64,000 nucleotides of DNA from Desulfobacteraceae bacterium Eth-SRB2 (GTDB lineage: Bacteria > Desulfobacterota > Desulfobacteria > Desulfobacterales > UBA11574): NCBI GenBank assembly GCA_004193595.1, contig RPGQ01000024.1, positions 16,017 to 80,016 of the forward strand, given 5' to 3'. The position numbers and the translations under genes were made by a program. Positions 3,493-61,299 of this stretch are shown one piece after another. Below the pieces are notes generated by a model. That model made no database searches and had not been told where the DNA came from. It worked only from the letters and a program-made list of their open reading frames with translations. Numbering within the stretch: the first letter of the stretch is position 1; each line of letters opens with the position of its first letter.

Positions 3493-3504
3493 GATTAAAG
3501 ATCT

Positions 3505-6770: not shown

Positions 6771-6795
6771 AAAGTCTATAGCGTAAGGAGGTTCT

Positions 6796-7113: not shown

Positions 7114-7144
7114 GCTTTTAGATTGAACTTTCTCAAAAGGATAT

Positions 7145-8662: not shown

Positions 8663-8749
8663 CAAATCGGAATTTTTATCCCACTATCACCCTAAAAAAG
8701 GTATATTAATCGTCAACCTGTAAAACTTTCAAATATAAAAACCTCATTC

Positions 8750-10483
8750 ATGAACCCATTGAACTCACGAAATATATTTCATTCCAACATTAAGAAATTA
8801 TTTGGAAAAATTCCAGATGATGATCGTATTACAATAGGCGAGCTCCTGAAACGAAAAGGCATTATTACCGAAAACCAACTCCGGAAAGCCCTAAAGGTAC
8901 AAAAAGAAAAACTCTATACCTTGGGCAAGGCCGTTCGATTGGGTCAAATCATCGTTGAACTCGGTTATGCATCGGAAGAAGAGCTGGTCAAGGCAGTAAA
9001 TATTGAATATCAGATTTCGGTTAAAACACTGGCAGACGACATTAAAGGGCTTGTCAAAGATAAACGCGGGAACTTTGTCGAAGGTCTTCCTCCACCCCGC
9101 ATCCCCATATGGCTTCAATCTTTTGCTGCAACCATGGTCATTATTATCACGACTATTTTTGTAATGAGCTTTTTTATGTTAAGCCAGCAAAAAGAAAGGC
9201 TTTACCGGCAAACCGTAAAGATCGGCAAGGTCAGCCTGAACTATTTTAGCAGCAATTCTCCCGTCCCCCTTCTGGAAGACAATATTTTAAGGCTCAATAC
9301 CTTAATTAAGGGGGCAACGGCTGTTGAAGGGCTTGTTTATGCCATCATCGTTGATCACAATCAGATCATAAAGGCACATACCGACATAAATAAAATCGGC
9401 AAGACCTTTGAAAAGTTCACGAACATGGAAGATGTGAAAAAAGAACAAGATGTTACTTACTTTAATTACTACTTAAAATCCGGCGAACATATTTTGAATT
9501 TAAATCGTCCTGTATTATTTAAAGGTAAAAACCTGGGTCAAGTCCATGTCGGAGTGTCCATCAATTTTATTGAAAAATTGATTTATAAAGCTCGTTTGAC
9601 AATTGTAGCGATAACATTTTTTATTATTCTGTTCGGGAGTGTAATTGCAGTATGGCTCGGATTCCATTTCTCCCGCCCCATTTCAAATCTTGTTATGGCA
9701 ACCGGTGAAATCGGATCAGGAAATTATCAGCACAAAATAATTCTGGCAAGAAATGACGAACTGGGAAACCTGGCCACCGCCTTTAACCGCATGGGAGACG
9801 AACTCTGGAAGAATTCTCTCATGCAGAAATCCTTTGGCAAATATATCGGTTCTGAAGTTCTTGAAATGATCCTGGCCAATCCTGAAAGTGCCTGGCTTAA
9901 AGGCCATAGGAATGAAGCCACCATCGTGTTCACCGATATCAGAGGATTTTCATTATATTCAAAGCTCAAGGAGCCTGAAGAAATCGTTGAAGGTCTAAAT
10001 GAATACTTTGAGATTGCCACACAGGCCATACAGGATCATGGCGGGTATGTGGATAAGTTTATCGGTGATGCGGTTCTTGGGGTTTTTGGGGTCCCGGTTT
10101 ATCACGAAAATCATGTGGAAAGGGGGTTACGGGCCGCCAGCGACATGCAGAAGAAGTTTACGAATAAACGATACAATGGAAACCGCCTCCTTCAATCTGT
10201 AGGTATCGCAATTCATTCCGGTATCGTTGTATCAGGTAATATCGGATCACAGGATAAAATGGAATATACGGTAATTGGTGATACGGTAAACCTGACGGCA
10301 CATCTGAACAGGCTTGCCAGGCCCGGAGAAATTATTATTACTAAAAGTGTTTATGAAAATCTTGAAGACATGATTACCGTAAAACCAATTTCTCCGCAAT
10401 ATATCAAAGGCAAAACAAAACCGGTTGAAACGTTTAAGTTGCTCAGCATAAAGGACAAGCCCAATGCAACCCTTAGCAAATAA
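8750..10483 (+). CDS. membrane-bound class III adenylate/guanylate cyclase with HAMP domain and an N-terminal T2SSE_N/MshEN-like domain
   Basis: N-terminal motif ITIGELLKRKGIITENQLRKALKVQKE...LGQIIVELGYASEEELVKAV. Two TM segments flank a periplasmic sensor region. HAMP (LATAFNRMGDEL). Cyclase homology domain (ATIVFTDIRGFS...FIGDAVLGVFGVP). Confidence 0.83.
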   Translation: MNPLNSRNIFHSNIKKLFGKIPDDDRITIGELLKRKGIITENQLRKALKVQKEKLYTLGKAVRLGQIIVELGYASEEELVKAVNIEYQISVKTLADDIKGLVKDKRGNFVEGLPPPRIPIWLQSFAATMVIIITTIFVMSFFMLSQQKERLYRQTVKIGKVSLNYFSSNSPVPLLEDNILRLNTLIKGATAVEGLVYAIIVDHNQIIKAHTDINKIGKTFEKFTNMEDVKKEQDVTYFNYYLKSGEHILNLNRPVLFKGKNLGQVHVGVSINFIEKLIYKARLTIVAITFFIILFGSVIAVWLGFHFSRPISNLVMATGEIGSGNYQHKIILARNDELGNLATAFNRMGDELWKNSLMQKSFGKYIGSEVLEMILANPESAWLKGHRNEATIVFTDIRGFSLYSKLKEPEEIVEGLNEYFEIATQAIQDHGGYVDKFIGDAVLGVFGVPVYHENHVERGLRAASDMQKKFTNKRYNGNRLLQSVGIAIHSGIVVSGNIGSQDKMEYTVIGDTVNLTAHLNRLARPGEIIITKSVYENLEDMITVKPISPQYIKGKTKPVETFKLLSIKDKPNATLSK

Positions 10484-11477
10484 AAGGAAAACCATTTTCC
10501 ACATAATTCTTTTATTATTCCTTTTAGTGCTTGCCGCCTGCGCCACAAGTACCCGGTCGCATCACAAGACTTCTGAAATTCGCATTAATGACGACTTTAT
10601 CATTGTCAAAGCAACCGCCAAAGACACGCTTTCTTCCCTTGCCGCCGAATACTTGAACGATCCGTCCAAAGGGTGGTTAATCGCCGAATTTAATCATATT
10701 AAAAGCCTGACTTCCGGACAGGAATTGTGCATCCCCCTATTCCCTTTCAATAAGGGCGGCCTTAAATCCGGAGGTTTTCAAACCGTCCCGGTTTTGGCAT
10801 ATTACAGTTTTTCCAAAAACAAACCAAGTAAAATATCAATCACTCAAGACGACTTTAAAGCCCAGATGAAATATCTTAAGGAAAACGGCTATCATGTTAT
10901 CACCCTGAATCAATTATTGGGATTTTTCGATTACCAGGAACAGATACCTGATAAATCTGTTGCAATTACATTTGACGACGGATGGATCTCCGTATATGAC
11001 ATCGCTTTTCCCATATTGAAAGAATATGGTTTCCCGGCTACAATTTTTATTTACACTGATTTTATCGGCGGCGGAAAAGCCATGTCCTGGAAACAAATCA
11101 AAGAGCTTTCAGACGCCGGTTTTGATATCCAATGCCAAACCAAAACCCACCGAAATCTGACAGAGCTTAGAGAAAAGGAGTCGTTTAAAGAATACTTCAA
11201 ATCCCTTGAAATGGAGATAAGTTACCCCAAAAAGGTTATCAAAAAGAAACTGAATAAAGAATGCGAATGTCTGGCATATCCTTACGGTATAACGAACAAT
11301 CTCGTCATTGCCATGTTAAAAAAATACGGCTACCGTGCCGCGTTCACCGTGGATAATAAATCGAATCCGTTTTTTATTGATAAATACAAAATCAATCGAT
11401 CGGCAATTTACGGCAAATATGATATTGAAAAGTTTAAAAAAAGACTGTCCGTATTCCAAAACATGGAATTGAAATGA
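10464..11477 (+). CDS. lipoprotein: LysM domain plus polysaccharide deacetylase (NodB-type)
   Basis: Lipobox LLLFLLVLAAC. LysM-like segment (IIVKATAKDTLSSLAAEYLND). NodB motif ITFDDGWISVYDIAFPILKEYGFPATIF. Confidence 0.78.
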   Translation: MQPLANKRKTIFHIILLLFLLVLAACATSTRSHHKTSEIRINDDFIIVKATAKDTLSSLAAEYLNDPSKGWLIAEFNHIKSLTSGQELCIPLFPFNKGGLKSGGFQTVPVLAYYSFSKNKPSKISITQDDFKAQMKYLKENGYHVITLNQLLGFFDYQEQIPDKSVAITFDDGWISVYDIAFPILKEYGFPATIFIYTDFIGGGKAMSWKQIKELSDAGFDIQCQTKTHRNLTELREKESFKEYFKSLEMEISYPKKVIKKKLNKECECLAYPYGITNNLVIAMLKKYGYRAAFTVDNKSNPFFIDKYKINRSAIYGKYDIEKFKKRLSVFQNMELK

Positions 11478-27694: not shown

Positions 27695-27742
27695 AATATT
27701 CCCCCCCGGATACGTTTACGTTTGAAATGATCTAAAGTTCCT

Positions 27743-27925
27743 GAACCGCAAATGCACACTAATGCACACATATAATATTTTTTAATTTGCGTGTATTCGT
27801 GTTCATTCGTGGTTAAAAAAGCCCTTTCATAACAGTGAGCTAAACTTCATAAACCGCAAATGCACACTAATGCACACATATAATATTTTTTAATTTGCGT
27901 GTATTCGTGTCCATTCGTGGTTAAC
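27743..27925. repeat. tandem duplication (2 x 74 nt, period 109 nt) of an imperfectly palindromic module in a divergent promoter region
   Basis: Units 27743-27816 and 27852-27925 differ at one position. Each reads aaccgcaaatgcacactaatgcacaca-TATAAT-attttttaatttgcgtgtattcgtgt(t/c)cattcgtggttaa: internal direct 9-mers (aatgcacac x2; attcgtg x2) around a perfect TATAAT. Confidence 0.7.
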
Positions 27926-27989
27926 CCTGAACCGCTGAACACTTATTATTTTTTTGACACTCAAATCTACTTATCCTATATTTCTTAAC

Positions 27990-29054
27990 ATGAAAATAGC
28001 ATTTATTCATTATCATCTCAAAACCGGCGGTGTAACCACGGTGTTACGGCAACAGGTGGAAACGCTCCGTGATACGTGTGACATGATGGTATTAACCGGC
28101 GCGCCTCCGGAATCGTCCTTTGTTTGCGACACCGTTCATATACCGGGACTGGGTTACGATCGCGGGGATCAAAATAGATCGGACCCCGAAGATATTGCAG
28201 CCGCCATCACCCGGGCGATCCATCTAAAATGGAAAGGCGGATGCGACCTTATCCATGTTCATAACCCCACACTGGCAAAAAACAGGGATTTTTTGAAAAT
28301 TCTCAAAGCGCTCCAAAACAAAAAGATCAAACTTTTTCTTCAGATCCATGATTTTGCGGAAGACGGTCGACCCTTAGTATACTTTTCTGAAGATGAATAT
28401 ATTCAAGACTGCCATTATGGGGTCATTAATTCAAGGGATTACAATATCCTGATCGAATCGGGATTAAAAGAAAAGGGGTTGCATAAAATTTTCAACACCA
28501 TAACTCCTTTTAATTTAAGTGCAAAAGGAGCACCCCCAAAAAACCTGGTTTTGTATCCGATTCGAGCACTCCGGAGAAAAAATATTGGGGAAGCAATTCT
28601 TATCTCCCTGTTTTTCAAAAACAATGAAACCCTTGCAATTACCCTTCCGCCCAACAGCCCGGCAGATCTGGAAAGCCATGCGCAATGGAAGGCGTTTGTA
28701 GAAGAAAAGAATCTGAATGTAATATTTGAAGCAGGTTTATCCCATGAATTTTCAGAACTTGTCATGTCCGCCAGGTTTATTATCACCACAAGTATTACCG
28801 AGGGATTCGGATTTTCATTTCTCGAACCCTGGACTGCAAAAAAAATCCTATGGGGAAGGAATCTACCGGAAATATGCCATGATTTTGAAAAAAAGGGGGT
28901 CTGGTTGGATCACCTTTACACACGTCTGGCGGTTCCCGTGGAATGGCTCGGTAAAGAAAAGTTATTTAGGACCTGGAAGGCGTGCATACGAAAAGCGTGT
29001 TCCCTATTCGGCATAGTTATCGATAACACGAAAATCGCCCAGTCACTTCTTTAA
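27990..29054 (+). CDS. GT-B fold glycosyltransferase (family-4-like)
   Basis: N-terminus MKIAFIHYHLKTGGVTTV. C-terminal region resembles a retaining GT-B nucleotide-sugar domain. The ORF-track start at 27954 is TTG. The ATG at 27990 is preferred. Confidence 0.6.
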   Translation: MKIAFIHYHLKTGGVTTVLRQQVETLRDTCDMMVLTGAPPESSFVCDTVHIPGLGYDRGDQNRSDPEDIAAAITRAIHLKWKGGCDLIHVHNPTLAKNRDFLKILKALQNKKIKLFLQIHDFAEDGRPLVYFSEDEYIQDCHYGVINSRDYNILIESGLKEKGLHKIFNTITPFNLSAKGAPPKNLVLYPIRALRRKNIGEAILISLFFKNNETLAITLPPNSPADLESHAQWKAFVEEKNLNVIFEAGLSHEFSELVMSARFIITTSITEGFGFSFLEPWTAKKILWGRNLPEICHDFEKKGVWLDHLYTRLAVPVEWLGKEKLFRTWKACIRKACSLFGIVIDNTKIAQSLL

Positions 29055-29123
29055 AAATTCTAATAATCGCGCCGAATCTGAGAGAGAAAGCTTTTTGGTT
29101 TTCGATATATTTTTCACCGTATT

Positions 29124-30586
29124 CTACAACGGCAAAACACTTTCAAAGTTTAGCCCTCCTTTGGCACCCGTGTTTACAGCCGCGCCGTTGAATGGTATCC
29201 TGGTTTTTTTCCACCTCATGGTCAAAATCCGCCCTGACTTTGAAAATTTTATTAAATTTTGAATCATGGTTCTGGAGCAGGTGAAAACAGGTGGATAGCC
29301 GCTGAACAAGACAACCTTTGACTTCCAGCGGGGACCGGTTCCGGCCGAAGGGATGATGTGCCGTATCCCAGGCCTGGAAGCAAGATCTTCTATAAAAGGA
29401 GCTTTGTTTCTTGTAACGCACGTTTGAGCGCTTCCCACACGAACGCCGGGTTCATGAGGTGATAATTCGATTTCCATTATCAGACAACCGCCGTTGGCTC
29501 TGGCGGAGAGTGATCCGGCCTGGACCATGGTAAAGTCTTTGTGATAATGGTTCTATATGCTCTTTTTCAATTTGGCCGAAAACATTGTGATGCGTCGGAT
29601 TTGTTTCAAAATAACCGGGGCGCTCTTTTAAAGGATTTTGATCTACCAACACATTGACCTTATAGTTGAAAGAGGTTTGGCATTTGAAACATGAAGCCCT
29701 CAATGGGTGATTTTGCTTCCTGAGAAGATATAAAACTCTTTAACGTTTTCCAGAATATCCTCCTGCAATCTTCGTCCAGAGCAGAATGCTTTGCATCCCT
29801 TGTATTGTTCCTCCTTTACATTATCTATCCGTTGTTTCACTACGAACAAAGGATTTCTTCCATGAGCTTTCAACTTGAGAAGTCATTACCTGGTTGATTT
29901 TATTGCCTCGACCGTATAATGACTTCTGGATTGAACCATACTGATCCTTTCCTCGATTTCGATTTCTGTTTCCTCTGAAGGCCATAAACTCCTCCGGTGA
30001 AATCGGCTTTTCCTTTTTAACAATGGGGATGGTTTGATACCCAATTTTGGTCCTGTTAAGCTGATATTATCTCTTCTTTTCCTTTGCCGACGCTTCGAGC
30101 GCTCTTGAATGACCTTCTTTTGTTGATCAGGAATAGCCTTTTTGGATTTCAGATTGTCTCTGGTGATACGATCTCATGCTCAAAGGCTTTGGGCAACTCT
30201 TTTCAGATCATCAATTAACTTGTTTATTGTTTTACTGAACTGGTTGCTTTGCTCTGTGGGCACGGGCTTCGGTTTTGGGGTGGTATTCATCCTTAAAATT
30301 GCTGACCATGCACCAATCCACGGGTGACGGAAGCGGTTTTTGCTTGCTTGTCGACCAGGTCTCTGATGATGGTAGATTTACCGGTGCCTTCTAATCCTGT
30401 GACAAAAAAATGTTGTAGCCCCGACTTTCTTACATGTTCAGGCCGAAGTTTATGGCTCCGAACCGCCCGTTCCTGTCCGATGACTTCATCCAGGGATTTA
30501 CTTCCGCAGTATTTCTTAAAGGTAAACATCTTGTGATCACATATTGACCTAAGATCCGAAGGCTTTAATTCGCATGTTTTTTCATA
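29124..30586 (-). pseudogene. degraded inverted duplicate of the 5' 60% of the Lon-like protease gene
   Basis: Fragments in three frames match the intact gene at 33619. 30293-30529 matches MFTFK..DEVIGQERAV..FVTGLEGTGKSTIIRDLVDKQAKT. 29452-29703 matches YKVNVLVDQ...FETNPTHHNVFGQIEK. 29143-29421 matches LLQNHDSKFNKIFKVRADFDHEVEKNQDTIQ exactly. The start region has A6 versus A7, which frameshifts it. Confidence 0.78.
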
Positions 30587-31426
30587 ATCTTCTTCTCCTT
30601 AAAAAATAAAAATTCAATAACCGGATAATCATCACAGGGCAATTATAAGGATGTTCTATATTCATATGTTTTTTAAAATTTAGCAAATTATTAAGTTTCA
30701 AGATAATGATGAGGGTGTGATGGAAAGGATACCGGACAGCCTGTCAAGAATTTGTCGATTTTATTTTATTTGCTCACCAAGGTTTTTAACGCGGTTCTTA
30801 TTATAATATTATAACTATAAGGAATTATAATGAAAATATAGATATTTAACATGGGAATGATGCCACTGGCATTTGCTATTGCAAAAATTAAGAAAAGAAG
30901 AATGTCAGCGTATATTTATGAGAAAAATATTGCATATCAACAGATATCGTAGGAGAGGAGACGGTTTGCCAAGCATGGAACCGGTTCAAAAGAAGTCGGC
31001 ACCGATAGATAGACGCCGGAAAGTGAGAGACGGCATAACCCTTAAAGGATTTTGATCGCAGGTAGAACAATGATCCATATTACAGTGGCTCCTGAGAGGC
31101 GTAGCAATATGGATAGAAGAAGTGGGATGGAATAATATGCTGTAAAATAAAATGGTTACCATCGCCCACAAAAGACTTTTACGAATGTTTCAATATTGCT
31201 TTTGCAGGAATCTTTCATATAAATTAAAAAAGCACAAAAATGTGAAAGTAAAGATCCGGGTCCAGAGGGGGCCTGGTTTTTGATTATCCCCAGAGGGATT
31301 TAGTTTGTCGGCATTTAACGATTTTACGAAGTAATGGAGTATTGGAGGGTGGAGTAATGGAAGAAACCCCTTTTCATCGCTCTCAGAAAACAGATCCCTG
31401 AGAAAATCTGAAAATTTAAAGCTCTT
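30587..31426. repeat. left arm (non-coding part) of the about 2.3-kb inverted duplication; mirror of 32781-33618
   Basis: The reverse complement of 30527-31426 aligns almost base-for-base with 32781-33680. A small ORF intact in the right arm is broken here (extra T plus TAG). Confidence 0.8.
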
Positions 31427-31572
31427 TTAAATCAACACTCCAATACTCCATTACCCGGTTGATTTATACGGGCAGAGCCATTGATTCTGACCCCGCAATG
31501 GGACAGGTTAATGGCCCAGCCTCCGCCCATAGGGAGGACCAGGGTTTTAGAACCCAATAAAAAACGGCTAAA

Positions 31573-32781
31573 TATGGATACAGACAATTATATGATAACG
31601 GTGTGCCCATCATGTAAATGCAGGTATCGGGTTCCTGAAGCTTTTATTGGACGAAAGGTTTCATGCAAGAAATGCGGTAGCGGTTTTAGTCTAAACTTAC
31701 AGGAAGAAAGCGCGCAAAAACAAAACCGGCAGGATGCCTCATCCGAACAGGGAGAGGTTTGGGAAGTCTTTCAAGATGATGCCTATTTGGTGATCGGCAA
31801 ACTGGCTGTTAAGTACAAGTTTATTAATGAAAAACAACTCCAAAAGGCTCTATTGATTCAAGAAGAGGGAAAACGAGCCGGGCAGAAGCTGTTATTGGGA
31901 GAGGTCCTGGTTGCTCATAGGATGATATCTCAAGCCCAGTTGGATCTTCTTTCTTCAGTACAGAAAATGGTTGAAGTTAGAAGACTGGATGTAAAATTCG
32001 GAGCCATTGCCGTGGGAGAAGGATTCACGACCCGTGATGAAATTGACAGAGCATTAGAGGAACAAAATAGGATATTCAAAGAGAAAAAAACAATTCAGTT
32101 GATCGGTGATATATTGATTGAATCCAAGGTGCTTACGGAAAATCAGCGCGATTCAGTCCTTAAAAGACAAAAGCGTTTTGAAAAAATTACATCTGATGAG
32201 CAAAAAAGGCCTGATGTTTCTGATTCCCAAGAACAGATTGAAAGTGATGCTGAATTTAATCTTACTGTTTCAGAAGACAAACTTAATGCCTTTATATCGA
32301 TAAAAAGAAAAGTTTCCGGCCCGATTACCATCGATAACATTAAAAATTTCCTTCAAATCAAAGGGATCGAATACGGAATAGTAAACGATGATCAAATAGC
32401 AGAGTACCTGAAAATTATCGACAACAAAAAGAGGCATTGAAAATTGCAGAAGGCAAACCCCCGGAATCCGGAAAAGATGAGCACATTAAATATTACTTTG
32501 AAACAGATTCGTTAAAAGTAGGAGCAATTAAAGAGGGCGGAGCCATAGACTTTAAAGACAGGGGAGATGTTCCTAACGTAAAAGAAGGAGATCTGCTTGT
32601 TGAAAAAATACCTGTTGTGGAAGGCAAGGCCGGGAAAGACGTATACGGCAGTCCAATACCCCCACAAAAACCCAATGATATAAAACTCAAAAATGGGAAA
32701 GGCACTAAAATTTCTGATGATCGGATTAAAATTATTGCTAAAATTGACGGCATACCTGAAATTTCTGCTATGGTAAAGTAA
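31573..32781 (+). pseudogene. Zn-ribbon / 4x T2SSE_N-like repeats / DUF342 (FapA-like) protein, frameshifted and 3'-truncated
   Basis: MJ0042-type zinc ribbon (ITVCPSCKCRYRVPEAFIGRKVSCKKCGSGF). Four roughly 25-aa repeats (IGKLAVKYKFINEKQLQKAL; LGEVLVAHRMISQAQLDLL; FGAIAVGEGFTTRDEIDRAL; IGDILIESKVLTENQRDSVL). Then FapA_N-like (FLQIKGIEYGIVNDDQI) and GKPPESGKDEHI...GKAGKDVYGSPIPPQKPNDIKL. The reading frame shifts -1 at the A-run near 32426-32430 (ORFs 31481-32440 and 32437-32781). The ORF ends exactly at the repeat-arm junction (32781), before the expected DUF342 beta-helix region. Confidence 0.6.
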
Positions 32782-35090
32782 AAGAGCTTTAAATTTTCAG
32801 ATTTTCTCCAGGGATCTGTTTTCTGAGAGCGATGAAAAAAGGGGTTTCTTCCATTACTCCACCACTCCAATACTCCATTACTTCGTAAATCGTTAAATGC
32901 CGACAAACTAAATCCCCTCTGGGGATAATCAAAGCCGGGCCCTCTGGACCCGGATCTTTACTTTTCACATTTTGTGCTTTTTAATTTATATGAAAGATTC
33001 CTGCAAAAGCAATATTGAAACATTCGTAAAAAGTCTTTTGTGGGCGATGGTAACCATTTTATTTTACAGCATATTATTCCATCCCACTTCTTCTATCCAT
33101 ATTGCTACGCCTCTCAGGGCCACTGTAATATGGATCATTGTTCTGCCTGCGATCAAATCCTTTAAGGGTTATGCCGTCTCTCACTTTCCGGCGTCTATCT
33201 ATCGGTGCCGACTTCTTTTGAACCGGTTCCATATGGCAAACCGTCTCCTCTCCTACGATATCTGTTGATATGCAATATTTTTTTCTCATAAATATACGCT
33301 GACATTCTTCTTTCTTAATTTTTGCAATAACCGTACCAGTGGCATCATTCCCATGTTAAATATCTATATTTTCATTATAATTCATATAGTTATAATATTA
33401 TAATAAGAACCGCGTTAAAAAAACCTTGGTGAGCAAATAAAATAAAATCGACAAATTCTTGACAGGCTGTCCGGTATCCTTTCCATCACACCCTCATCAT
33501 TATCTTAAAACTTAATAATTGCTAAATTTTAAAAAAAAACATATGAATATAGAACATCCTTATAATTGCCCTGTGATGATTATCCGGTTATTAATTTTTA
33601 TTTTTTAAGGAGAAGATTATGAAAAAAACATGCGAATTAAAGCCTTCGGATCTTAGGTCAATATGTGATCACAAGATGTTTACCTTTAAAAATACTGCGG
33701 AAGTAAATCCCCTGGATGAAGTCATCGGACAGGAACGGGCGGTTCAGGCCATAAACTTCGGCCTGAACATGAAAAGTCCGGGGTACAACATTTTTGTCAC
33801 AGGATTAGAAGGCACCGGTAAATCTACCATCATCAGAGACCTGGTCGACAAGCAAGCAAAAACCCTTCCGTCACCCGTGGATTGGTGCATGGTCAACAAT
33901 TTTAAGGATGAATACCACCCCAAAACCATTTCCGTGCCCACAGGCAAAGCAACCCGGTTCAGTAAAACAATAAACAAGTTAATTGATGATCTGAAAAAAG
34001 AGTTGCCCAAAGCCTTTGAGCATGAATCGTATCACCAGAGACAATCTGAAATCCAAAAAAAGTATTCTGATCAACAAAAAGAGGTCATTCAGAAACTCGA
34101 AGCGTCGGCAAAGGAAAAGAATATCCAGCTTAACAGGACCAAAACCGGGTATCAAACCATCCCCATTGTTAAGGAAAAGCCGATTTCACCGGAGGAGTTT
34201 ATGGCCCTTCCAGAGGAAACGAAATCCGAAATCGAGGAAAGGATCAGTATGGTTCAATCCGAAGTCGACGCCACGGTCCGAGAACTTAATAAAATCAACC
34301 AGGTAATGACTTCTCAAGTTGAAAAGCTCATGGAAGAAATCGCTTTGTTCGTAGTGAAACAGCGGATAGATAATGTAAAGGAACAATACAAGGGATGCAA
34401 AGACATTCTGGCCTATCTGGACGAGGTGCAGGAGGATATTCTGGAAAACGTTAAGGATTTTATATCTTCTCAGGAAGCAAAATCACCCATTGAGGGCTTC
34501 ATGTTTCAATCTGCCAAACCCTCTTTTCAACGCTATAAGGTCAATGTGTTGGTAGATCAAAAATCTTTAAAAGGCGCCCCGGTTATTTTTGAAACAAATC
34601 CGACGCATCACAATGTTTTCGGCCAAATTGAAAAAAGAGCCCATATGGGAACCATTATCACAGACTTTACCATGGTCCAGGCCGGATCACTCCTTAGAGC
34701 CAACGGCGGTTATCTGATAATGGAAATCGAGTCTATCCTCATGAACCCGTTCGTGTGGGAAGCGCTCAAACGTGCGTTACAAAACAAGCTCCTTTTTATA
34801 GAAGATCTTGCTTCAGGCCTGGGATACGGCACATCATCCCTTCGGCCGGAACCGGTCCCGCTGGAAGTCAAGGTTGTCTTGTTCGGCAGCTATCACCTGT
34901 TTCACCTGCTCCAGAACCATGATTCAAAATTTAATAAAATTTTCAAAGTCAGGGCGGATTTTGACCATGAGGTGGAAAAAAACCAGGATACCATTCAACA
35001 ATACGCTCGCTTTATTTCCCGGGTATGCAAAGAAGAGGAACTCCTGCCGTTAACCCCCAAAGGTGTTGCCGCCATTGTAGAATACGGTGA
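32781..35090. repeat. right arm of the inverted duplication (upstream region plus 5' part of the intact Lon-like gene)
   Basis: See left arm. Estimated 93-97% nucleotide identity to the left copy. Confidence 0.78.
33074..33232 (-). CDS. small basic protein with DRR/ERR repeats (hypothetical), divergent from the Lon-like gene
   Basis: MEPVQKKSAPIDRRRKVRDGITLKGFDRRQNNDPYYSGPERRSNMDRRSGME. Intact only in the right arm. The ORF-track start is at 33289. Confidence 0.35.
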   Translation of the reverse strand: MEPVQKKSAPIDRRRKVRDGITLKGFDRRQNNDPYYSGPERRSNMDRRSGME

Positions 35091-36036
35091 AAAATATATC
35101 GAAAACCAAAAAAAGCTTTCTCTCAGATTCGGCGCGATTATGGGAATTTTAAAAGAGGCTGACTACTGGGCAAAGAAAAGGAATGCAAAACGGGTTTCAG
35201 ACAAAGATGTTATCACCGCTTTCAGTGAATACCGATTTCGGTATAACCTTTATGAAGAAAAAATACACGAATCCTACGTGGATGATACCATTATGATCGA
35301 TGTGAAAGGGGATGTTGCCGGACAGGTAAATGCCCTTTCCGTATTTCAAATCGGCGATTTTATGTTTGGGCGTCCTTCCCGAATCACCGCCGAAACCTAT
35401 ATGGGCAAGCAGGGGGTTGTTAATATTGAACGGGAAGCCAAGCTGAGCGGAAAGACCCATGACAAAGGCATTCTGATTCTCTCCGGTTATTTGGGACGAA
35501 CTTTCGCGCAAAACTACCCATTAAGTTTATCCATCAGCATCACTTTTGAGCAAAGCTACAGCGGCATCGACGGCGACAGCGCTTCTTCGACGGAACTGTA
35601 TGCCGTTATCTCAAGCCTTTCAAACATTCCCATCCATCAGGGGATCGCGGTAACCGGTTCAGTGAATCAAAAAGGGCAAATTCAGGCCATCGGAGGGGTT
35701 AATCAGAAAATTGAAGGATTTTTTGACGTCTGTAAAAGCAAAGGACTTACCGGCAAACAGGGAGTATTAATTCCCCGGGCCAATGTAAAAAATCTGATGC
35801 TTAAAAAAGATGTGATCGATGCCGTAAGAAAAGGAAAATTTCATATCTATCAGGTTTCTACGATTGAAGAAGGAATAGAGATATTAACAGATGTTCCTGC
35901 AGGAACTCCGGATAAAGAGGACTACTTTCCCGAAGGAACCGTTTACGGCAAGGTACAGGAAAAGCTTAAACGATATCTGGAACAATTATTTAAACTTAAA
36001 AAACAATTTGAGGACGAAGACGAAACAACCGTATAG
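33619..36036 (+). CDS. Lon-like ATP-dependent protease (COG1067 type: AAA+ module plus S16 Lon C-terminal protease domain)
   Basis: Walker A VTGLEGTGKST. S16 domain with catalytic-Ser context SYSGIDGDSASSTELYAVISSL and a downstream Lys (IGGVNQKIEG). AAGGAG RBS. 805 aa. Confidence 0.85.
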   Translation: MKKTCELKPSDLRSICDHKMFTFKNTAEVNPLDEVIGQERAVQAINFGLNMKSPGYNIFVTGLEGTGKSTIIRDLVDKQAKTLPSPVDWCMVNNFKDEYHPKTISVPTGKATRFSKTINKLIDDLKKELPKAFEHESYHQRQSEIQKKYSDQQKEVIQKLEASAKEKNIQLNRTKTGYQTIPIVKEKPISPEEFMALPEETKSEIEERISMVQSEVDATVRELNKINQVMTSQVEKLMEEIALFVVKQRIDNVKEQYKGCKDILAYLDEVQEDILENVKDFISSQEAKSPIEGFMFQSAKPSFQRYKVNVLVDQKSLKGAPVIFETNPTHHNVFGQIEKRAHMGTIITDFTMVQAGSLLRANGGYLIMEIESILMNPFVWEALKRALQNKLLFIEDLASGLGYGTSSLRPEPVPLEVKVVLFGSYHLFHLLQNHDSKFNKIFKVRADFDHEVEKNQDTIQQYARFISRVCKEEELLPLTPKGVAAIVEYGEKYIENQKKLSLRFGAIMGILKEADYWAKKRNAKRVSDKDVITAFSEYRFRYNLYEEKIHESYVDDTIMIDVKGDVAGQVNALSVFQIGDFMFGRPSRITAETYMGKQGVVNIEREAKLSGKTHDKGILILSGYLGRTFAQNYPLSLSISITFEQSYSGIDGDSASSTELYAVISSLSNIPIHQGIAVTGSVNQKGQIQAIGGVNQKIEGFFDVCKSKGLTGKQGVLIPRANVKNLMLKKDVIDAVRKGKFHIYQVSTIEEGIEILTDVPAGTPDKEDYFPEGTVYGKVQEKLKRYLEQLFKLKKQFEDEDETTV

Positions 36037-45329: not shown

Positions 45330-45357
45330 TGGCTAATCACCTCAACTATAAATGATC

Positions 45358-45590
45358 GTATCCGTTCACGGGTTCAGGGTTCAACGTTCAGGGTTAAGGA
45401 CAAAAAAGCAATGAAGATCCGAAGTCCTCGTTACAAATGTTCATTTTTCCAAGTATTTGCCAATTTGGCTTCAAATTTTGGATTAGGCCTAACGAAACTG
45501 ACGCTTTTCTCGTAAATACGCATCCCAAATGTAGCCCGTGGACGAGAATGGAACCTTGAACCCCTGAACCTTTGAACCGTGAACGGTTAC
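45358..45590. mobile_element. MITE family 1, copy B (233 bp) at the 3' end of gyrA
   Basis: TIRs GTATCCGTTCACGG...CCGTGAACGGTTAC. 8-bp TSD AAATGATC on both sides. The gyrA TAA stop (45587-45589) lies within the terminal GGTTAC. Confidence 0.78.
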
Positions 45591-48022
45591 AAATGATCTT
45601 CCTTTTCCGCGAGCCGTGCAACACCGGCAACTTTTTCTTCGGGTGACAGCCCGATAAGCGTTACCCCCTGGGTGTTACGGCTGATCACAGAAATTTGGCT
45701 CACCGACATTCGTATCAGTTTTCCTGTATCGGCCATTAACATCAGGTCGTCGTCGTCATCAACCAACAGTATTGCCACGACCTGTCCGTTTCGCTTACTT
45801 GTCTTAATGGTAATGACACCCTTGCCCCCGCGTCTCTGGAGAGGATACTCATCAATTGAAGTTCTTTTCCCGTACCCGTTTTCCGTTGCCGCAAACAGGG
45901 TCTGGCCATGGCTTAGAACCTCCATGCCAACAATTCGGTCCCCTTTGGCAACCCTCAATCCGTGAACGCCCCTTGAGACACGGCCGCTCGGTCGAACGTC
46001 GGACTCGTGAAAGCGTATGGATTTGCCCGTGGCAGAACCTAAAAAGATATTCCGGGTCCCGTCTGTTATCCTTGCTGCAATCAATTCGTCACCCGGAACC
46101 AAGCTTAAAGCGATGATACCGCCGGATCTGGGTCTGGAAAACGCCATAAGATCCGTCTTTTTGACCAGTCCGTTTCGGGTTGCCATAATGATATAATACC
46201 CCGGCTCAAATACCGAGACATCAAGCACGGTAGTAAGTTTCTCATCCTTTCCCAGGTTAAGAAGATTAACGATTGCTTTTCCTCGGCTCATGCGGCCGGC
46301 CTGGGGAATATCGTACACTTTGCACCAGTAAACCCTTCCCTGGTTTGTAAAAAATAGAAACGTATGGTGGGTGGACGCCACAAAGAGATTCGCAATAAAA
46401 TCTTCATCCTTAACTCCCATGGCTGTCTTTCCTTTGCCACCGCGCTGCTGTTTCCGGTAAAGGGTAATGGGATTCCGTTTTATATAACCGCTTTTTGAAA
46501 TGGTGACAACCATGTCCTCTTCAACAATCATATCCTCAATGGTTATCTCTTTTGTTGATTCAACAATCTCAGTCCGTCGCTCATCACCATACTCTTGCTG
46601 TATTTGTGTAAGCTCGTCCTTGATAATATTTTTCACAAGACGCTCACTGCCTAAAATCTCTTTGTACCAGGCAATATCCTTGAGAGTATTCTTGTATTCT
46701 TCCAGAATTTTTTCCTGCTCCAAACCGGTAAGCCGCTGCAGACGCATATCCAGGATGGCCTGGGCCTGTATCACCGTCAGGTCGTATGTCCGAACCAGCC
46801 CTTTTTTGGCCTCGTCCGGCGATTTGGATTGGCGAATCAGAGATACGACATCATCAAGATTTTCAAGGGCGATTTTTAAGCCTTCCAGGATATGGGCCCG
46901 CGCTTCAGCCTTTTTCAGGTCATATCGGGTCCGGCGGATAATAATCTCCCTGCGGTGAAGAATGAAATGCTCAAGAATCTTTTTCAAAGAGAGTTGTTGG
47001 GGCTGGTTGTTCACAATGGCAAGAAAAATGATGCCGAAGCTGTTTTCCATCCGCGTGTGCTTGAAAAGCTGATTAATGATCACCTCCGCAAACTGATCTT
47101 TTTTCAGCCCCACCGCGATCCGCATACCTTCCCGGTCCGACTCATCCCTTATATATCGTACCCCTTCGACCTGCTTTTTTCTTATCAGGTCCGCAATTTT
47201 TTCGATAAGTTTTGCCTTGTTCACCTGATAAGGAAGCTCCGTGACAACGATTGTCTCTCTTCCTGTCCTTTTGTCTTTTTCGATCACGGCTCTCGCCCTG
47301 ATTCGGATGATGCCCCGACCGGTTGTATATGCGTCATAAATTCCTTTGGTGCCGTAAATAATACCGGCAGTGGGAAAGTCAGGGCCCGGGATATAAGCCA
47401 AAAGGTCTTGAGATGTTAGATCAGGATCATCTATGACTGCCTTTGTGGCTTCAATGACTTCAAAAAGATTATGAGGCGGGATGTTGGTGGCCATACCAAC
47501 GGCGATACCCGAAGAACCGTTTATTAAGAGGTTGGGGGCTTTGGCCGGAAGTACACAAGGCTCTGTCAAAGAATCATCATAATTCGGCACAAACTCAACG
47601 GTTTCCTTATCCAGGTCCTCCATCATCTCATGAGCCAAACGCATCATTCTGACTTCAGTATACCTCATTGCAGCCGGAGGGTCGCCATCCACGGAACCAA
47701 AATTGCCCTGGCCGTCTACAAGAGGATACCGTAAAGAAAAATCCTGGGCCATCCGTACAATGGTATCATAAACCGCAGTATCACCATGGGGATGATATTT
47801 ACCGATAACATCACCGACGATGCGGGCGGATTTTTTATACGCTTTGTTATAATCGTTTTTAAGCTCTCGCATTGCAAAGAGTATGCGTCTGTGGACGGGT
47901 TTCAGGCCGTCGCGCACTTCCGGGAGTGCTCTCCCGATGATGACACTCATGGCATAATCGAGATACGACTTTTTCATCTCGCTCTCGATACTGATCTGAG
48001 CCAACTTTTCTGTATTCAACAT
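45587..48022 (-). CDS. gyrA: DNA gyrase subunit A
   Basis: [29 protein letters not shown]. Active-site Tyr region and C-terminal beta-pinwheel repeats. 811 aa. Confidence 0.93.
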
Positions 48023-48177
48023 ATTAAACCACCCGCCTGAACCTTGAACCTTTGAACCCTATACGGTTAAGGGTTAGTATTTTTGTAAGTGTTCACAGAT
48101 TTTTTAAAATCACAAATTACAAGCACCAAATTTCAAATAAATTCCAAATGCCAATAACCTAAACTATTTCTATTTTT

Positions 48178-48411
48178 GTATCCGTTCACGGGTTCAGGGT
48201 TCAACGTTCAGGGTTAAGGACAAAAAAAGCAATGAAGATCCGAAGTCCTCGTTACAAATGTTCATTTTTCCAAGTATTTGCCAATTTGGCTTCAAATTTT
48301 GGATTAGGCCTAACAAAACTGACGCTTTTCTCGTAAATACGCATCCCAAATGTAGCCCGTGGACGAGAATGGAACCTTGAACCCCTGAACCTTTGAACCG
48401 TGAACGGTTAC
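48178..48411. mobile_element. MITE family 1, copy C (234 bp), 156 bp upstream of gyrA
   Basis: Same orientation as copy B and over 98% identical to it. 8-bp TSD CTATTTTT. Confidence 0.78.
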
Positions 48412-48577
48412 CTATTTTTTTAGTATTGATGAAAATATTTTTTTCAATTCGTTTGCTTTTCTTCAAGATCATAAGGTTTCGAATTTTGAATTTCGGTCAT
48501 TGTGATTTGTTTGTTTTTTGGGATTTGTTATTTGGAATTTCCACAAAATCAACTACTCCATGAACCGTTACTATTTT

Positions 48578-50006: not shown

Positions 50007-50296
50007 CTGTGTTAATCTCCTTTAAGTGTAAACATTTCTCGAAACGCCTTTTACTCAAAATTGATGAGGTTTAAAAAGCAATAACTTGATAATATTAGTT
50101 TTTTCTCTTTTTAGTACGGCGAAGCCGCATGATATAGAATCGCGCAATCATTGTATAATTTGTAACAATAACATTTAATTAAGTAAAGGAAAAACAGACA
50201 AACCTGTTTATTTTTTGTATAGTCATAAAGGTTTGACGATCCTGGTTTTTTTTAATAACATATAAAGAATTTTATGGTCAAAGGTCTCGAGACAAA

Positions 50297-51079
50297 ATGT
50301 GCCTGATTGTATTTTCCTACGATATGCATCCCCGTTACCGGTTGATACTTGCCGCTAACCGGGACGAAGATTACAACCGTCCGACAGCGCCGCTTTCTTT
50401 TTGGGATGACGCGCCAGGCATTTTTGCCGGCCGTGATTTAAAGCATAATGGAATGTGGCTTGGGGTTTCCCGGACAGGACGAATTGCCGCCATCACTAAT
50501 TTCAGAGAACCTGATTTTCGGATTGCAAATGCCCCTTCCCGTGGTTTTCTGGTGGGCGATTTTCTGGTCTCAAAACAATCTGCCAAAAATTATATAGAAC
50601 ACGTTAAAACTATGGGGCACAGATTCAATGGGTTTAATCTTTTTGTCGGAGACAGGTCCGAGCTATTTTATTATTCCAACAGGGGAAACAGCATTAAGAA
50701 AATAAAACCCGGCTTATACGGTGTGAGCAATCGATTTCTTGACACGCCATGGCCCAAGGTGGTTAAAGGAAAGGCTGATCTTAAAAAACTGCTTGATAAG
50801 ACTGAAAAAATAGACTCTGAAAACATATTCGGTATTCTGAAAGACAGCTCTTATCCACCGGACAACGCGCTACCGGACACCGGCATCGGCCTCACTTGGG
50901 AACGGATTCTTTCCCCCTTGTTTATCACAAGCAGATTTTACGGAACACGCTCATCTTCAATCGTTTTGATAGAACGCTCAGATAGAATAACCTTTTTAGA
51001 ACGGACATTTATTTCAGATGGCGCTGTATCCAGAGAGGAGAAAACCCGAAAATTCACCTTTGATATAAAATCGCAATAA
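50297..51079 (+). CDS. NRDE-family protein (DUF833/TANGO2-like)
   Basis: N-terminal MCLIVF...LAANRDE signature. Confidence 0.8.
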   Translation: MCLIVFSYDMHPRYRLILAANRDEDYNRPTAPLSFWDDAPGIFAGRDLKHNGMWLGVSRTGRIAAITNFREPDFRIANAPSRGFLVGDFLVSKQSAKNYIEHVKTMGHRFNGFNLFVGDRSELFYYSNRGNSIKKIKPGLYGVSNRFLDTPWPKVVKGKADLKKLLDKTEKIDSENIFGILKDSSYPPDNALPDTGIGLTWERILSPLFITSRFYGTRSSSIVLIERSDRITFLERTFISDGAVSREEKTRKFTFDIKSQ

Positions 51080-51256
51080 ATTATGGCGCCGGGTTAATAT
51101 GATTATTTAATACACCAAAACTTATTGAGAAGTTACCCTCTGATATGATATAGTATAGAAAATTTGAGGAAAAGCCTTGACAAACAGACCATAGCTGCTT
51201 AGTTTTTTTTATAAAAATGTTCTTTCTCATCTTTTTACCCCAAACAATCTCTTTGT

Positions 51257-51620
51257 GGGGGCGAAACGGCTTCGACGGGGATAAAGAAGCATCGGCTGCA
51301 TGCCAAGCTCCTGCCGGCTTGTAAAAAAGGCGGGAAACTTAAAGTAATCGCAGACGATTATAATTACGCTTTAGCCGCTTAAGGCTAACGTCCTACCGGA
51401 TTATTCCTGCGCATCCGGCAAGGGCGTCGACAAGCAGGATAGCCGGTCCCGATATCCCGTTAACGGATCGGTCCTGCAGGCGGCTTTTGCGAAGGTTATG
51501 GGTTTCAGGCGATTGCGTCCGCACTCTTTTATCATCTATCTTGTTATCGTTTTCGGAGATCAGGTATTGCATTTCAATACAAAACAAGCCTTCCAGTAAA
51601 GGCGGAGTTTGATCAAAACA
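51257..51620 (+). ncRNA. ssrA: tmRNA-like (ssrA) sequence; 5' acceptor/TLD half and tag ORF recognisable, 3' T-arm/CCA not found
   Basis: GGGGGCGAAACGGCUUCGACGGGG 5' consensus. Tag reading frame gca gac gat tat aat tac gct tta gcc gct taa (51350-51382) encodes ADDYNYALAA*. The 3' end is approximate. Confidence 0.55.
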
Positions 51621-51639
51621 GTTTCGGCGACGAAACAAT

Positions 51640-54600
51640 ATTTATATCCTATTTGCTGGCGTGACGATATGGCAGGTTTCCGCGTAAAGTCGCTCAAACC
51701 GGTATTTCGAAGATCTACCTGATTCTTTATTTCTATTTATTTTCTATTTTTATGCGTGACATCGGCGCTGACTTGTTTTGAAAAGTTATACGCCTAAATC
51801 GGTGCTTTTGCCTCGGCAAGCCATTTTAAGATTCAGCATTGCTACGGCGAAAATCAAAATTGCGATTAGATAGTATTGATCACGGCAAATGACAACAGCC
51901 GAAAGTCGTCAGTTAACGGTGGTAAGTAATTGACCAGTCACACGACACCGGCATGCTCATCAAAATGCCCAGCCGCGAAGTACCAGCGCCGCCATATACG
52001 ATTTCGACGTCTCATCCAGCAAAATGAAATGTCATGGCCTTTGATCTGCTCCGCATGATGGCGTTTATTTTCTAGATCAGTATAAGTTAGGTGCTGGTTT
52101 GCGTACGATTTCCCCATCAATCTTAATTTAGGCAGACTCTAATCGTTTTTATACTTTATCTCGCAATAAGCTTCGTTTTAGTAACTCTTTGGGCTCTCTA
52201 CCAGTGTCGCGGAAGACTCAGTACCTTAGCTGAAAGCGCTCGCCAGACAAATAGAATGGTGCGAAAGGTTTTAGTTAAATTTTCGGTGCGTAAAGTTTCC
52301 TTTATCCATAGGTGAGCCCCAAAAGTAGCGTATGTAGTCCAACGATATGTACAGCCAGAATACAAAACCACCGATAGCGTAAGTACTGAACTCTTCCCGC
52401 TCAAACAGCAGTGATTACATTTGTCAACAACTTCAACAAGACGACCATGAAAAAGACGATCGCGTAACGATAAACACTGGCTCTGCTTTTCGCCGGACCC
52501 GACCGCAGCAGATGACCCAAATATCCGGCCCATTCAGCCCTTAACGGCGTACTAATAACATTTTAATTGAACGTTTTTTCGTGATCTAAACGTAGCGTTT
52601 CACCGTAAAAAGCGGTAATTGTATCTTTAACCAGAACCTTGATCGGGATTAATTTCTGGCTGGATTAATTCTGTTTTAGCGTTTAATCCGGCAACTCCGA
52701 CCATGAAAATCATTCTTTAATGGCAGCAGTACGTTTGAAGAACGCTTTATAAAATTGATAGGTCGCATGGTGATAGAAAAGCTTAAACTGGAAGAAAAGA
52801 AAACCGCGCGGCGATTTGTCCGAAATGAGGCGCGCAACTATCCGGTTCCTGATTTACTCGAACAATTTGATTAACCTTGATGTAAGGGGCCCAAAAAGCT
52901 TTATGCTCAACCGTTATTTGGTTGTAACATAGGATTTTGAGGCGGTTTATTTGATACCAGCAATAAAAGGAACAACCCCAGAATTTATTACAGATTTTAT
53001 TGAAAGCTGCACAATCAATGTAAAACGCTCAGCAAGTTACAAATTACTTCCAGGATTGCTGATGATTTTCGATGCCAAATCAGCCGCAATCACTATTTCT
53101 TGAGCTCGCGACCCAGGACATTGACGTGAATTAAATGAAATGATTAGCAGATATTTTGTACCAAGTTTTAAAGTGCCGGATGGAAAGCCAGCCATCGATT
53201 TTGTATAGTCAATTCCGCACCTTAGGCTTTATTTTGATCTGGTAATCGCGATTTCATCTTTGGACGTCAGCGCTTAAAGCGAACTTTTTATTGCTGAACG
53301 CGTTGAAGTTTCTGTAGTCAAATTTGATTACCTGGATTTCATATTTCTGATGGTCCCAGATTCCAATTAATCTTTTAAAGCAAAATATGCTAATCACTTC
53401 CTGTGGGAGGCACCAGTCCGCCGATCTTGATCTTTTATTGATTGGATATAATTTAATCATCAGCAATCCCGGTGCTTTCGCGGCCAGTCCGTTTTAGTCG
53501 GCGATGGAGGCATGGCGTTATGAAATCGCGTAAACAGATCCTAATCATCGCCCTTTGCAAATGAAAACCGGACTCCACTAAAAATCAGTTAATTCTAGAA
53601 TCTGTGGTGGAAACTTTAATCGAGATGCTCGGCACCCGCCTCCAGGCAAATGGCGATAGGGCGAAACCAGGTAAAGGGATTTTCGGTGTCTTTTATGTTA
53701 AAGGGCCTCATAAAGCTGCACTTCCAGCAGCAAACCGTAAACCTAAACCCACGATGTTTTGTAACTTAGTTATGTCGCATCTTCTTTTTCGGCGCGGCGG
53801 TAAGGAATTGAAAAACGGGTGGATAATCAAAACTCGAAAATGGATGAAAAAGAGACACCAGTCGAAGTTTCATCTGGATCTGGTGTTCTGACGAATCTTT
53901 GTATCGCGGGATAAACTTAACAACCTGAAAACCGGCTGGAAGCGCATTAATTCCAGGCGTATGCGCCAAAATGATACGATCTCTCGGAGGCTCAAATAAA
54001 TTAGGTTATGCTCAGTTCTGGAAATCGATTCATAGTGCGCGACGCCGCTAAACCGACATCGTACTAAAACGCCACCGAAAGCAACGGCGAACCATTGCAT
54101 GTGGAAAATGAAATGACAGCTGAATCTGGAAAAGAACCTGCGCAGGCGATTAAATAAGAAAATTAAGGCGTTTTGCTGAAAGTTGATAGAGACCGATTGT
54201 CATGGTCGGTGTTTGAGAGGCGTCAGGCAAAACTGCTGGCGGCAAAAACCGACCAAAACCTACTCACTTAAATAAAACCCACCAACGCGTCGACGCCGCC
54301 CTTCGGGATTATAAAATAAGCAAAAGTGGCGTTTTGATGTTTTACACTCGATGAAAGACGATCGTCAGAAGAAAATATATTGATAATGTTAAGATTTTGA
54401 AATTAGCTTTCAGGAAAATTAAACTGCTTCGGGATTTTGGCGTAATGGAAGGCATATGCGCGGCTTAATTTGTTCACCATCGGTTTATTTCTGACTCTTT
54501 CGTGGAGCCGCCGGCTTCCTCCCTGGTTTTTAGATCATAATAATTTAAACTGTAACTCCATAAAATAAAACCCGCCTTGATGGTGCAACCATACACCAGC

Positions 54601-61290: not shown

Positions 61291-61299
61291 CCTTCCTGC

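Follow-up and report, generated by a model that had tools for sequence, protein, structure and literature searches.

The DUF342/FapA-like reading frames found at 31574-32781 of the window (the whole 64-kb stretch of DNA that was analysed) are a fragment: of the roughly 756 codons of a gene conserved in the Desulfobacteraceae, they comprise the first 402. The absence of the C-terminus has a physical cause, as a 2.39-kb inverted repeat starts, with its inner end, at the very point at which the open reading frame (ORF) stops. The stretch from 29039 to 32779 is probably (at a probability of about 0.58) a low-support chimeric path, or a rare variant, in a long-read assembly, and the real gene of the organism would then be intact. 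Whether a chimera or a rearrangement lies behind it, the ORF pair is not a frameshift-regulated gene. The architecture encoded by the family, in which a zinc ribbon and MshEN-type motifs are combined with FapA domains, is real and is conserved in related sulfate-reducing bacteria; it appears to have gone undescribed so far.

The first ORF (31574..32440, plus strand) has its start codon at 31574 and not, as the preliminary description had it, at 31573. It shows 77-97% amino acid (aa) identity to its orthologs in an alignment and is in the correct frame for aa 1-286, after which three out-of-frame codons and a stop follow. The second ORF (32437..32781, plus strand), which is offset by -1 from the first, runs from a TTG codon at 32437 and covers aa 289-401 of the corrected product; its stop is formed at a junction, J2, that is described below. 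The frame switch that had been proposed to occur in an A-run can be assigned to the A5 run of 32426-32430 (frameshift 1, plus strand). An A6 run, in frame and within the sequence GACAACAAAAAAGAGGCATTG, is common to the four closest orthologs tested (L024, L025, L026, and L002), which read ...NKKEALKIAEG... at this site. Insertion of one A into the A5 run leads to a product of 402 aa. At frameshift 2 (32772..32773, plus strand), 6 nt before the stop and J2, a GG is present in the window where the orthologs carry GGG (ATGGGTAAAGT). This deletion creates the TAA stop at 32779-81 and puts the last two codons of the second ORF (V and K) out of frame. The blastn alignment with each of the four orthologs contained exactly two gaps in the fragment, the two 1-nt deletions by which its reading frame is interrupted. 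Both this second frameshift, from GGG to GG, and the 2.39-kb inverted repeat at the end of the ORF had been overlooked in the preliminary description.

The same description had placed a zinc ribbon and four MshEN-like repeats in front of FapA_N, and curated profiles agree with these domain calls; a profile search on the fused translation, which had been suggested as a check, gave a match to FapA_N and a score above cut-off for the MshE-related motif. The MJ0042-type zinc ribbon is encoded at 31604..31675 (plus strand; CPSC...CKKC, aa 11-34, in a domain of aa 7-38). It scored 23.9 bits with the NCBIfam model MJ0042_CXXC (TIGR02098), for which the cut-off is 20.9, and its score of 23.4 with Pfam Zn_ribbon_4 lies under the gathering score. 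The zinc finger of ZitP (2nb9) was the best Foldseek match of the N-terminus (probability 1.00, 36% identity over 41 columns), and weak sequence matches of the ribbon to 7zok and 2nb9 were obtained. Four MshE-type c-di-GMP motifs of 24 residues follow at 31790..32170 (plus strand), corresponding to aa 73-96, 107-130, 141-164, and 176-199. The NCBIfam model 'c-di-GMP_motif, MshE-related' (NF053729) recognizes them in three stretches with 52.5 bits (cut-off 38). A motif scan gave a period of 34-35 aa, made up of the 24-residue motif and a spacer of 10-11 residues. The number of repeats given earlier, four, is correct; their length, which had been put at roughly 25 residues, is 24 for the motif itself, and they are spaced by 34 aa and not by the 29 of canonical MshEN. 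Three of the motifs in the window agree with the relaxed published MshEN pattern at 9-10 of the 11 positions that it constrains, the remaining one scores lower, and a full match is seen in none, while in the orthologs L009, L012, and L014 the pattern is present in full in motifs 2 and/or 3. In an AF2 model based on 18 homologs, aa 70-200 are predicted to be helical with a pLDDT of 80-94. A Foldseek search with the whole multi-domain model, which was dominated by the zinc finger, returned PilF-GSPIIA as a weak match, at a probability of 0.69 (E=2.3), and weak matches to the c-di-GMP domains of Thermus thermophilus PilF were found in a sequence search of the PDB. From the agreement of the motifs with the published pattern, which some orthologs show in full, binding of c-di-GMP by the motif block can reasonably be inferred.

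The FapA_N domain (PF20250; 32255..32763, plus strand) is interrupted by frameshift 1. Only once one A had been inserted at 32430 did the profile match the corrected product from one end of the domain to the other, through the shift (aa 228-397, profile positions 1-175 of 178, E=6.7e-42). The C-terminal beta-helix domain of FapA (PF03961), the lack of which had already been pointed out, is absent from the fragment and from the whole 64-kb window. It had also been claimed that the adenylate cyclase at 8750 carries the same motif as the fragment. This was borne out: at aa 29-83 of the cyclase (8750-10483) lies the NF053729 motif (42.4 bits), behind which come sCache, HAMP, and Guanylate_cyc domains.

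A protein search yielded 50 relatives, and all named ones among them come from Desulfobacterales or Deltaproteobacteria MAGs. Nearly all 50 are 450-705 aa long and contain both PF20250 and PF03961; the latter domain is present in orthologs P0001-P0048 and in L002. The close ortholog loci in genome and metagenome collections are L024 (98.4% nucleotide identity), L025 (95.7%), and L026 and L002 (both 93.8%), and about a dozen further loci have amino acid identities of 50-75%. The gene of L002 is a single frame of 756 codons specifying a zinc ribbon, four motifs, FapA_N, FapA, and a coiled coil. Scores above the NF053729 cut-off were obtained with L002, P0005, P0012, P0019, and the distant P0030. 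In the related loci that cover the neighbourhood, the DUF342 gene encodes about 750 aa, apart from two in which the motif block is missing and the product has ~600 aa. Two close lineages, L015 and L016 (type P0007), carry this gene at an unchanged position but lack aa 62-213, which is the whole block. The order of the locus in the relatives is PBP1(-), RmlC(-), and LonC(-), followed divergently by DUF342(+), a HAD hydrolase gene(-), a glycosyltransferase (GT)-like gene of 477 aa(-), and SBP(+). This order holds for every related locus that covers the neighbours, with the exception of L003, in which there is no lon match. The genes around the fragment in the window are the same housekeeping genes as in the relatives. 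In L024, at 98.4% nucleotide identity, the native order and a full-length single-frame gene are present, and a palindrome was seen in none of the related loci. In L001, a public assembly with 'contig_N'-style names, the lon and DUF342 genes are fragmented by frameshifts, which shows that error-prone long-read assemblies of this lineage exist. A literature search found no paper in which MshEN occurs together with DUF342; MshEN and FapA co-occurred only incidentally, and FapA as an output of MshEN was found in no paper.

The two arms of the inverted repeat, 29039-31429 and 32779-35169, are 91.5-91.7% identical over about 2.39 kb. The right arm (plus strand) is a clean copy. It takes in the 0.66-kb upstream region and codons 1-517 of a gene for a LonC/LonB-like protease of 805 aa and is contiguous with the rest of that gene, which is intact (33619..36036, plus strand). 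In the left arm (minus strand), a low-accuracy inverted copy, codons 1-517 of lon are present together with the intergenic region of 0.66 kb between lon and DUF342 and with 182 nt of an element termed E. This element is a 308-nt insertion (31248..31555) directly 5' of the start codon and is absent from all relatives. It can form a hairpin with a perfect stem of 17 bp (31331-47/31438-54, z=-4.2), in the loop of which the palindrome has its inner end (31429/30). An Rfam scan of 28.5-36.5 kb at E<=1 revealed no RNA family for the conserved 0.66-kb intergenic region or for E.

The outer end of the left arm is junction J1 (29038..29039), at which the GT-like gene is joined to inverted lon codon ~517 with a microhomology of 2 nt (GC). 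Only the 5' 77% of the GT-like gene (27954..29054, plus strand; aa 1-365 of 477) is left, the gene being cut at J1. Junction J2 (32779..32780) was placed by a three-way comparison of the window, L024, and the reverse complement of the left side. Native DUF342 sequence, ...GGTAAAGT, passes here into the inverted copy of E, AAAAGAGC..., with a microhomology of 1 nt (T). The order in the window is GT aa 1-365, J1, a block, J2, part of E with the intergenic region and the whole of lon, and then the native order. The block between J1 and J2 consists of the 5' part of lon, the intergenic region, E, and DUF342 aa 1-402, and is inverted relative to both flanks. The 2.39 kb upstream of the fragment (5' lon, intergenic region, and part of the hairpin element) is in this way present twice, in inverted orientation, in a palindromic structure of 6.1 kb, of which the gene fragment forms the unique 1.35-kb centre. 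The native joins, ...ATGGGTAAAGTTTATGTCTCGCC... and ...GAAAATCGCAACTGCTTTTG..., differ from those in the window; the DUF342 gene natively continues as ...GCTATGGGTAAAGTTTATGTCTCGCC... and the GT gene as ...CGAAAATCGCAACTGCTTTTGAAAAAATAACC.... The junctions strip the DUF342 gene of its 3' 1.06 kb and the GT-like gene of its end, and they remove the HAD hydrolase gene (281 aa) that natively lies between the two. No match to this native downstream 2.3 kb, with DUF342 aa 403-756 at one side of the HAD gene and GT aa 366-477 at the other, was found anywhere in the 64-kb window. Two microhomology junctions, a nearby inverted source, and loss of the intervening native 2.3 kb are all features of a template switch. 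An inverton was considered and rejected: the repeats are 2.39-kb copies of lon and the intergenic region, there is no extra recombinase gene among the neighbours, and flipping of the centre would not restore the gene.

The differences between the arms comprise 66 substitutions and as many as 95 indel events, mostly of 1-3 nt; in the left arm, 49 of these indels are insertions and 46 are deletions. Homopolymer-type events made up 40 of the 64 one-base events, compared to 56% expected by chance, and the indels are not concentrated in homopolymers; homopolymer-length errors as the main source of the arm differences were ruled out on this count. When the differences were polarised using two outgroups, L025 and L026, 261 of about 277 differing alignment columns (~95%) proved to be specific for the left arm. 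The intergenic part, in which selection cannot account for the asymmetry, has 43 left-arm-specific differences versus 4. The density of differences declines from 48 per 200 nt at J1, the outer end, to 5-13 per 200 nt beside the centre. The left arm carries about 160 changes in 2.4 kb as compared to 7 in 1.2 kb of the central fragment, the latter consisting of 5 lineage-specific substitutions and 2 single-base homopolymer deletions. The syntenic genes of the flanks, about 12 kb in length, showed no frameshifts. Had the left arm decayed naturally after one event, its changes would be spread evenly, consist largely of substitutions, and resemble those of the centre. Such pseudogene decay was ruled out by the ratio of indels to substitutions, the one-sidedness, the gradient, and the contrast with the centre. 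The indel-rich, one-sided, and graded pattern fits near-raw long-read sequence in a place where genuine reads rarely align.

A second inverted structure is present in the window. A clean segment with an NRDE gene and the 5' part of the tmRNA gene (50163-51469) has a 70%-identical inverted copy at 62743-61358, in a geometry like that of the lon/DUF342 palindrome and 20 kb away from it. The degraded copy carries the native 3' continuation of tmRNA as found in relatives. The 9.8 kb between the two copies contains no ORF over 175 aa, Pfam match, or coding signal; in the ORF-free stretch of 51.5-61.3 kb, nothing interpretable came out of Pfam searches with its ten longest ORFs, a scan of codon usage, or a search for repeats.

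The preliminary description had offered a pseudogene, a sequencing error, and regulation by slippage as explanations for the frame switch. The first two survive as a pair, their common cause having been missed, and the third does not. Regulation of the gene by slippage at the A-run, be it through phase variation or through programmed -1 ribosomal frameshifting, is highly improbable. The shift needed is indeed -1 and C AAA AAG resembles the heptamer A AAA AAG, although it is a partial slippery heptamer only. A tract of A5 or A6 is too short to be an efficient contingency tract. Programmed frameshifting was rejected because the four closest orthologs tested (93.8-98.4% nucleotide identity) have A6 in frame and the RNA downstream of the A-run has no stimulatory fold (MFE -11.9 kcal/mol, z=-0.18 relative to shuffled sequence). 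Moreover, with the second frameshift present and the 3' half missing, any slipped product stays truncated and no functional product could be restored. A homopolymer sequencing error in the A-run alone, in an otherwise intact gene, is also unlikely, if less so. It would account for an A5 run where these orthologs have A6, the second shift is likewise a one-base contraction of a homopolymer, and the adjoining segment is clearly of low accuracy. However, with both indels mended the product still ends at aa 402 of about 756, nothing in the 64-kb window matches codons 403-756, the 3' end of the GT gene, or the HAD gene, and the ORF passes directly into an inverted copy of its own upstream region. 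As the 3' part has been removed by two illegitimate junctions, a single extra A in the reads would not restore the gene; a homopolymer error is insufficient as the whole explanation.

The choice is then between a technical and a biological origin of the junctions. A genuine template-switch rearrangement at the hairpin that left a fresh pseudogene is quite possible, though less likely than a chimera. A replication template switch (fold-back/MMBIR) at hairpin E would in this case have produced the inverted duplication and the deletion of the DUF342 3' half, the HAD gene, and the GT end; the two frameshifts would have been picked up afterwards, and only the poor accuracy of the left arm would be technical. 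Two junctions with 1-2 nt of microhomology to nearby inverted DNA, combined with a deletion, argue for such an event, as do the position of the inner boundary in the loop of the 17-bp hairpin, the 308-nt insertion 5' of the start codon as a further lineage-specific lesion, and the continuity and cleanness of the contig on both sides. The very few lineage-specific substitutions in the fragment would fit a recent date. Against it, long reads anchored in the unique flanks would polish both arms, whereas ~95% of the differences are on one arm and are graded towards J1. The indel-to-substitution ratio of 1.4:1 outside homopolymers is unlike natural decay, the ~160 changes in 2.4 kb of arm contrast with 7 in 1.2 kb of an equally 'dead' centre, and no relative shares the structure. 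A chimera is favoured by the native order and full-length gene in related loci, none of which has the palindrome, by the excess of indel events (95) over substitutions (66) with ~95% of the differences on the left arm, by the homopolymer deletion only 6 nt from J2 in surroundings of ~12 kb that are free of frameshifts, and by the second structure of like geometry 20 kb away. Junctions with 1-2 nt of microhomology that join nearby DNA in inverted orientation and delete the DNA in between are the signature of polymerase template switching, for example in chimeras made by multiple displacement amplification (MDA). On the other hand, an assembler supplied with plentiful native reads would be unlikely to produce two separate chimeric junctions in one contig, the missing 2.3 kb would need to sit elsewhere in the assembly, and both outer sides are clean and contiguous. 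A boundary in the loop of a strong hairpin would be just as favourable to template switches in a cell replicating its DNA, and error-prone repair synthesis near real breakpoints could explain the indel 6 nt from J2. The anatomy of the locus, its junctions, the asymmetry and gradient of the errors, and the intact orthologs are observations; from them we infer that the cause of 29039-32779 is technical rather than biological. According to the chimera model, a template-switch-type inverted chimera, or a rare variant molecule, would have been taken into a long-read-based assembly in which the clean right arm represents the single true copy. The accuracy of the left arm would have remained close to that of raw reads, since genuine reads find better alignments elsewhere, and those anchored in the unique centre would have polished only the inner part of the spurious arm, giving rise to the gradient. 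The two single-base homopolymer contractions in the gene would be residual errors, and the real gene of the organism would be intact and of full length, as in the relatives.

The biological value of the locus lies in the gene family; the window copy itself is damaged or misassembled, not regulated. It is a symptom of an unreliable or rearranged stretch of 3.7 kb and should not be annotated as a case of recoding or phase variation. The simplest model for the intact protein is that of a c-di-GMP-controlled FapA-type factor: the zinc ribbon would tether this factor to a partner, and two MshEN-like units would alter its conformation or oligomeric state upon ligand binding. A fusion of MshEN with FapA would bring an assembly factor of the FapA type, polar or flagellar, under the direct control of c-di-GMP; the c-di-GMP effectors of this group of sulfate reducers are poorly charted. 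The divergent LonC-like protease, as a conserved neighbour, is a candidate partner or regulator. The same motif on the Cache-HAMP adenylate cyclase, 23 kb away, hints at cross-talk from c-di-GMP to cAMP. Somewhat short of an even chance is given to the combined proposal that the intact relatives form an undescribed class of c-di-GMP effectors, with a ZitP-like ribbon, two MshEN-type units, and a FapA-type assembly or positioning factor, and that the palindrome is, separately, a real hairpin-triggered inverted duplication that has just killed the gene. Within the Desulfobacteraceae the putative effector class is conserved beside the divergent LonC-like protease, and sister lineages differ naturally in whether they possess the sensor block. 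L015 and L016, without aa 62-213, and the relatives that possess the block offer a natural comparison.

The FapA family is tied to flagellar assembly and polar positioning on the basis of FapA of Vibrio vulnificus. The corrected product resembles these FapA/DUF342 proteins in having a complete FapA_N domain, to which the full-length orthologs add PF03961 and a C-terminal coiled coil. It differs from them by the zinc ribbon and four c-di-GMP motifs in front of FapA_N and, as to the window copy, by the lack of the PF03961 domain. The family shows co-conservation with genes for the flagellum (PMC11607428), whereas the neighbourhood here consists of genes for LonC protease, RmlC, PBP1, HAD, and GT.

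MshEN modules are high-affinity c-di-GMP receptors fused to varied outputs; they consist of two 24-residue motifs with a 5-residue spacer in a unit of 53 residues, with the relaxed pattern [RKPN]hGxxhhxx[GAS]hhxxxxhxxxhxx[QNKRYWST] (PMC5013675). Carriers are MshE of V. cholerae, PilF of T. thermophilus, and NfrB of E. coli (Wang et al. 2016, PMC5013675). The present proteins share with them the tandem 24-residue motifs of the type hGxxhhxxGhhxxxxhxxxhxxQ, recognition by the curated MshE-related model, and fusion to an output domain, variation of which is a known property of MshEN. They have four motifs instead of two, spacers of about 10 rather than 5 residues, and FapA as the output domain. 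The Arg at the first position is replaced in all four motifs of the window (by V, L, K, and L), none of which fits the published relaxed pattern in full, and the block is best regarded as a putative binding domain.

MJ0042-type fingers such as that of Caulobacter ZitP are polar protein-interaction modules (PMC5182063, PMC5182065). The ribbon of CxxC...CxxC type at the extreme N-terminus is shared with ZitP (PDB 2nb9) and with AgmX/GltJ of Myxococcus (PDB 7zok), while the downstream domains are unrelated to those of either protein.

With regard to the palindrome, polymerase template switching is known from fold-back, FoSTeS, and MMBIR events in cells as well as from inverted chimeras that arise during multiple displacement amplification or in long-read libraries. 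The structure in the window resembles such inverted duplications in its microhomology junctions, inverted joins to nearby DNA, lost DNA, unique spacer, and breakpoint in a hairpin loop. It differs from them in that one arm is about 7% different from the other, and the errors by which they differ are indel-rich, one-sided, and graded, which points to how the sequence was obtained and not to the event itself.

Orthologs of the DUF342 gene, the FapA-type fragment starting at 31574, occupy the same syntenic slot in two related loci, L015 (10001-11812) and L016 (10001-11800), where the neighbouring Lon is 95 % identical. Both orthologs retain the zinc ribbon and the FapA parts and are without amino acids 62-213, which is the entire block of MshE-type motifs. 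Among sister lineages, some have either acquired or lost this putative c-di-GMP sensor module. In the orthologs of the loci L024, L025, and L026, non-synonymous codon differences outnumber synonymous ones (for example, 44 versus 28 between L025 and L026); the protein evolves rapidly.

In the public relative L001 (ENA ERZ21862439 contig_14), both lon and DUF342 are disrupted (4848-7260 and 8562-10830): lon is broken by frameshifts into at least six pieces, and the C-terminus of DUF342 has been shifted into a separate ORF. This sequence resembles a long-read assembly in which some indel errors remain, so that P0001 (612 aa) is an incomplete protein prediction.

Directly 5' of the DUF342 start codon, the window carries a 308-nt insertion (element E, 31248-31555) that was not found in any relative. 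It contains a hairpin with a perfect 17-bp stem (GTAATGGAGTATTGGAG/CTCCAATACTCCATTAC) and imperfect 8-nt terminal inverted repeats (CCGGGTCC/GGACCAGG), and could represent a mobile element, small and non-autonomous. Motifs resembling its GGAGTAnTGGAG were seen in the related locus L018. The intergenic region between lon and DUF342 holds a 71-aa Arg-rich ORF on the minus strand (33074-33289), with DRR/ERR repeats and belonging to no Pfam family, of which residues 26-71 are conserved (67-80 %) in L001-L004 and L026. A copy is located in the left arm near 30990-31131.

A second inverted structure spans 50163-62743. The clean copy of an NRDE-family gene (50297-51079), with the 5' part of the tmRNA alongside, recurs as an inverted copy at 62743-61358 that is 70 % identical (227 mismatches, 103 gap openings). 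The match to relatives ends at 51472 in the clean copy and runs about 90 nt further (61357-61268) in the degraded one. The gap of about 9.8 kb separating them (51473-61357) contains no ORF longer than 175 aa, gave no match in a Pfam search, and has a coding signal at intergenic level.

A repeat of about 235-260 nt, apparently a MITE or small dispersed element, occurs three times in the window (3259-3494, 45356-45593, and 48175-48435; 91-96 % identical, one inverted), and directly 5' of the NRDE gene in relatives L030-L033 as well. Between the SBP and GT-like (glycosyltransferase-like) genes lies a tandem pair of 89-nt repeats (27728-27816 and 27836-27924; 94 % identical) that is shared with the relatives L002, L025, and L026.

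An MshE-related c-di-GMP motif is also found at the N-terminus (aa 29-83; 42.4 bits, cut-off 38) of a class III adenylate/guanylate cyclase (8750-10483), followed by sCache_3_2, HAMP, and Guanylate_cyc. The presence of this motif and the cyclase domains in one protein suggests a possible c-di-GMP input into cAMP synthesis.
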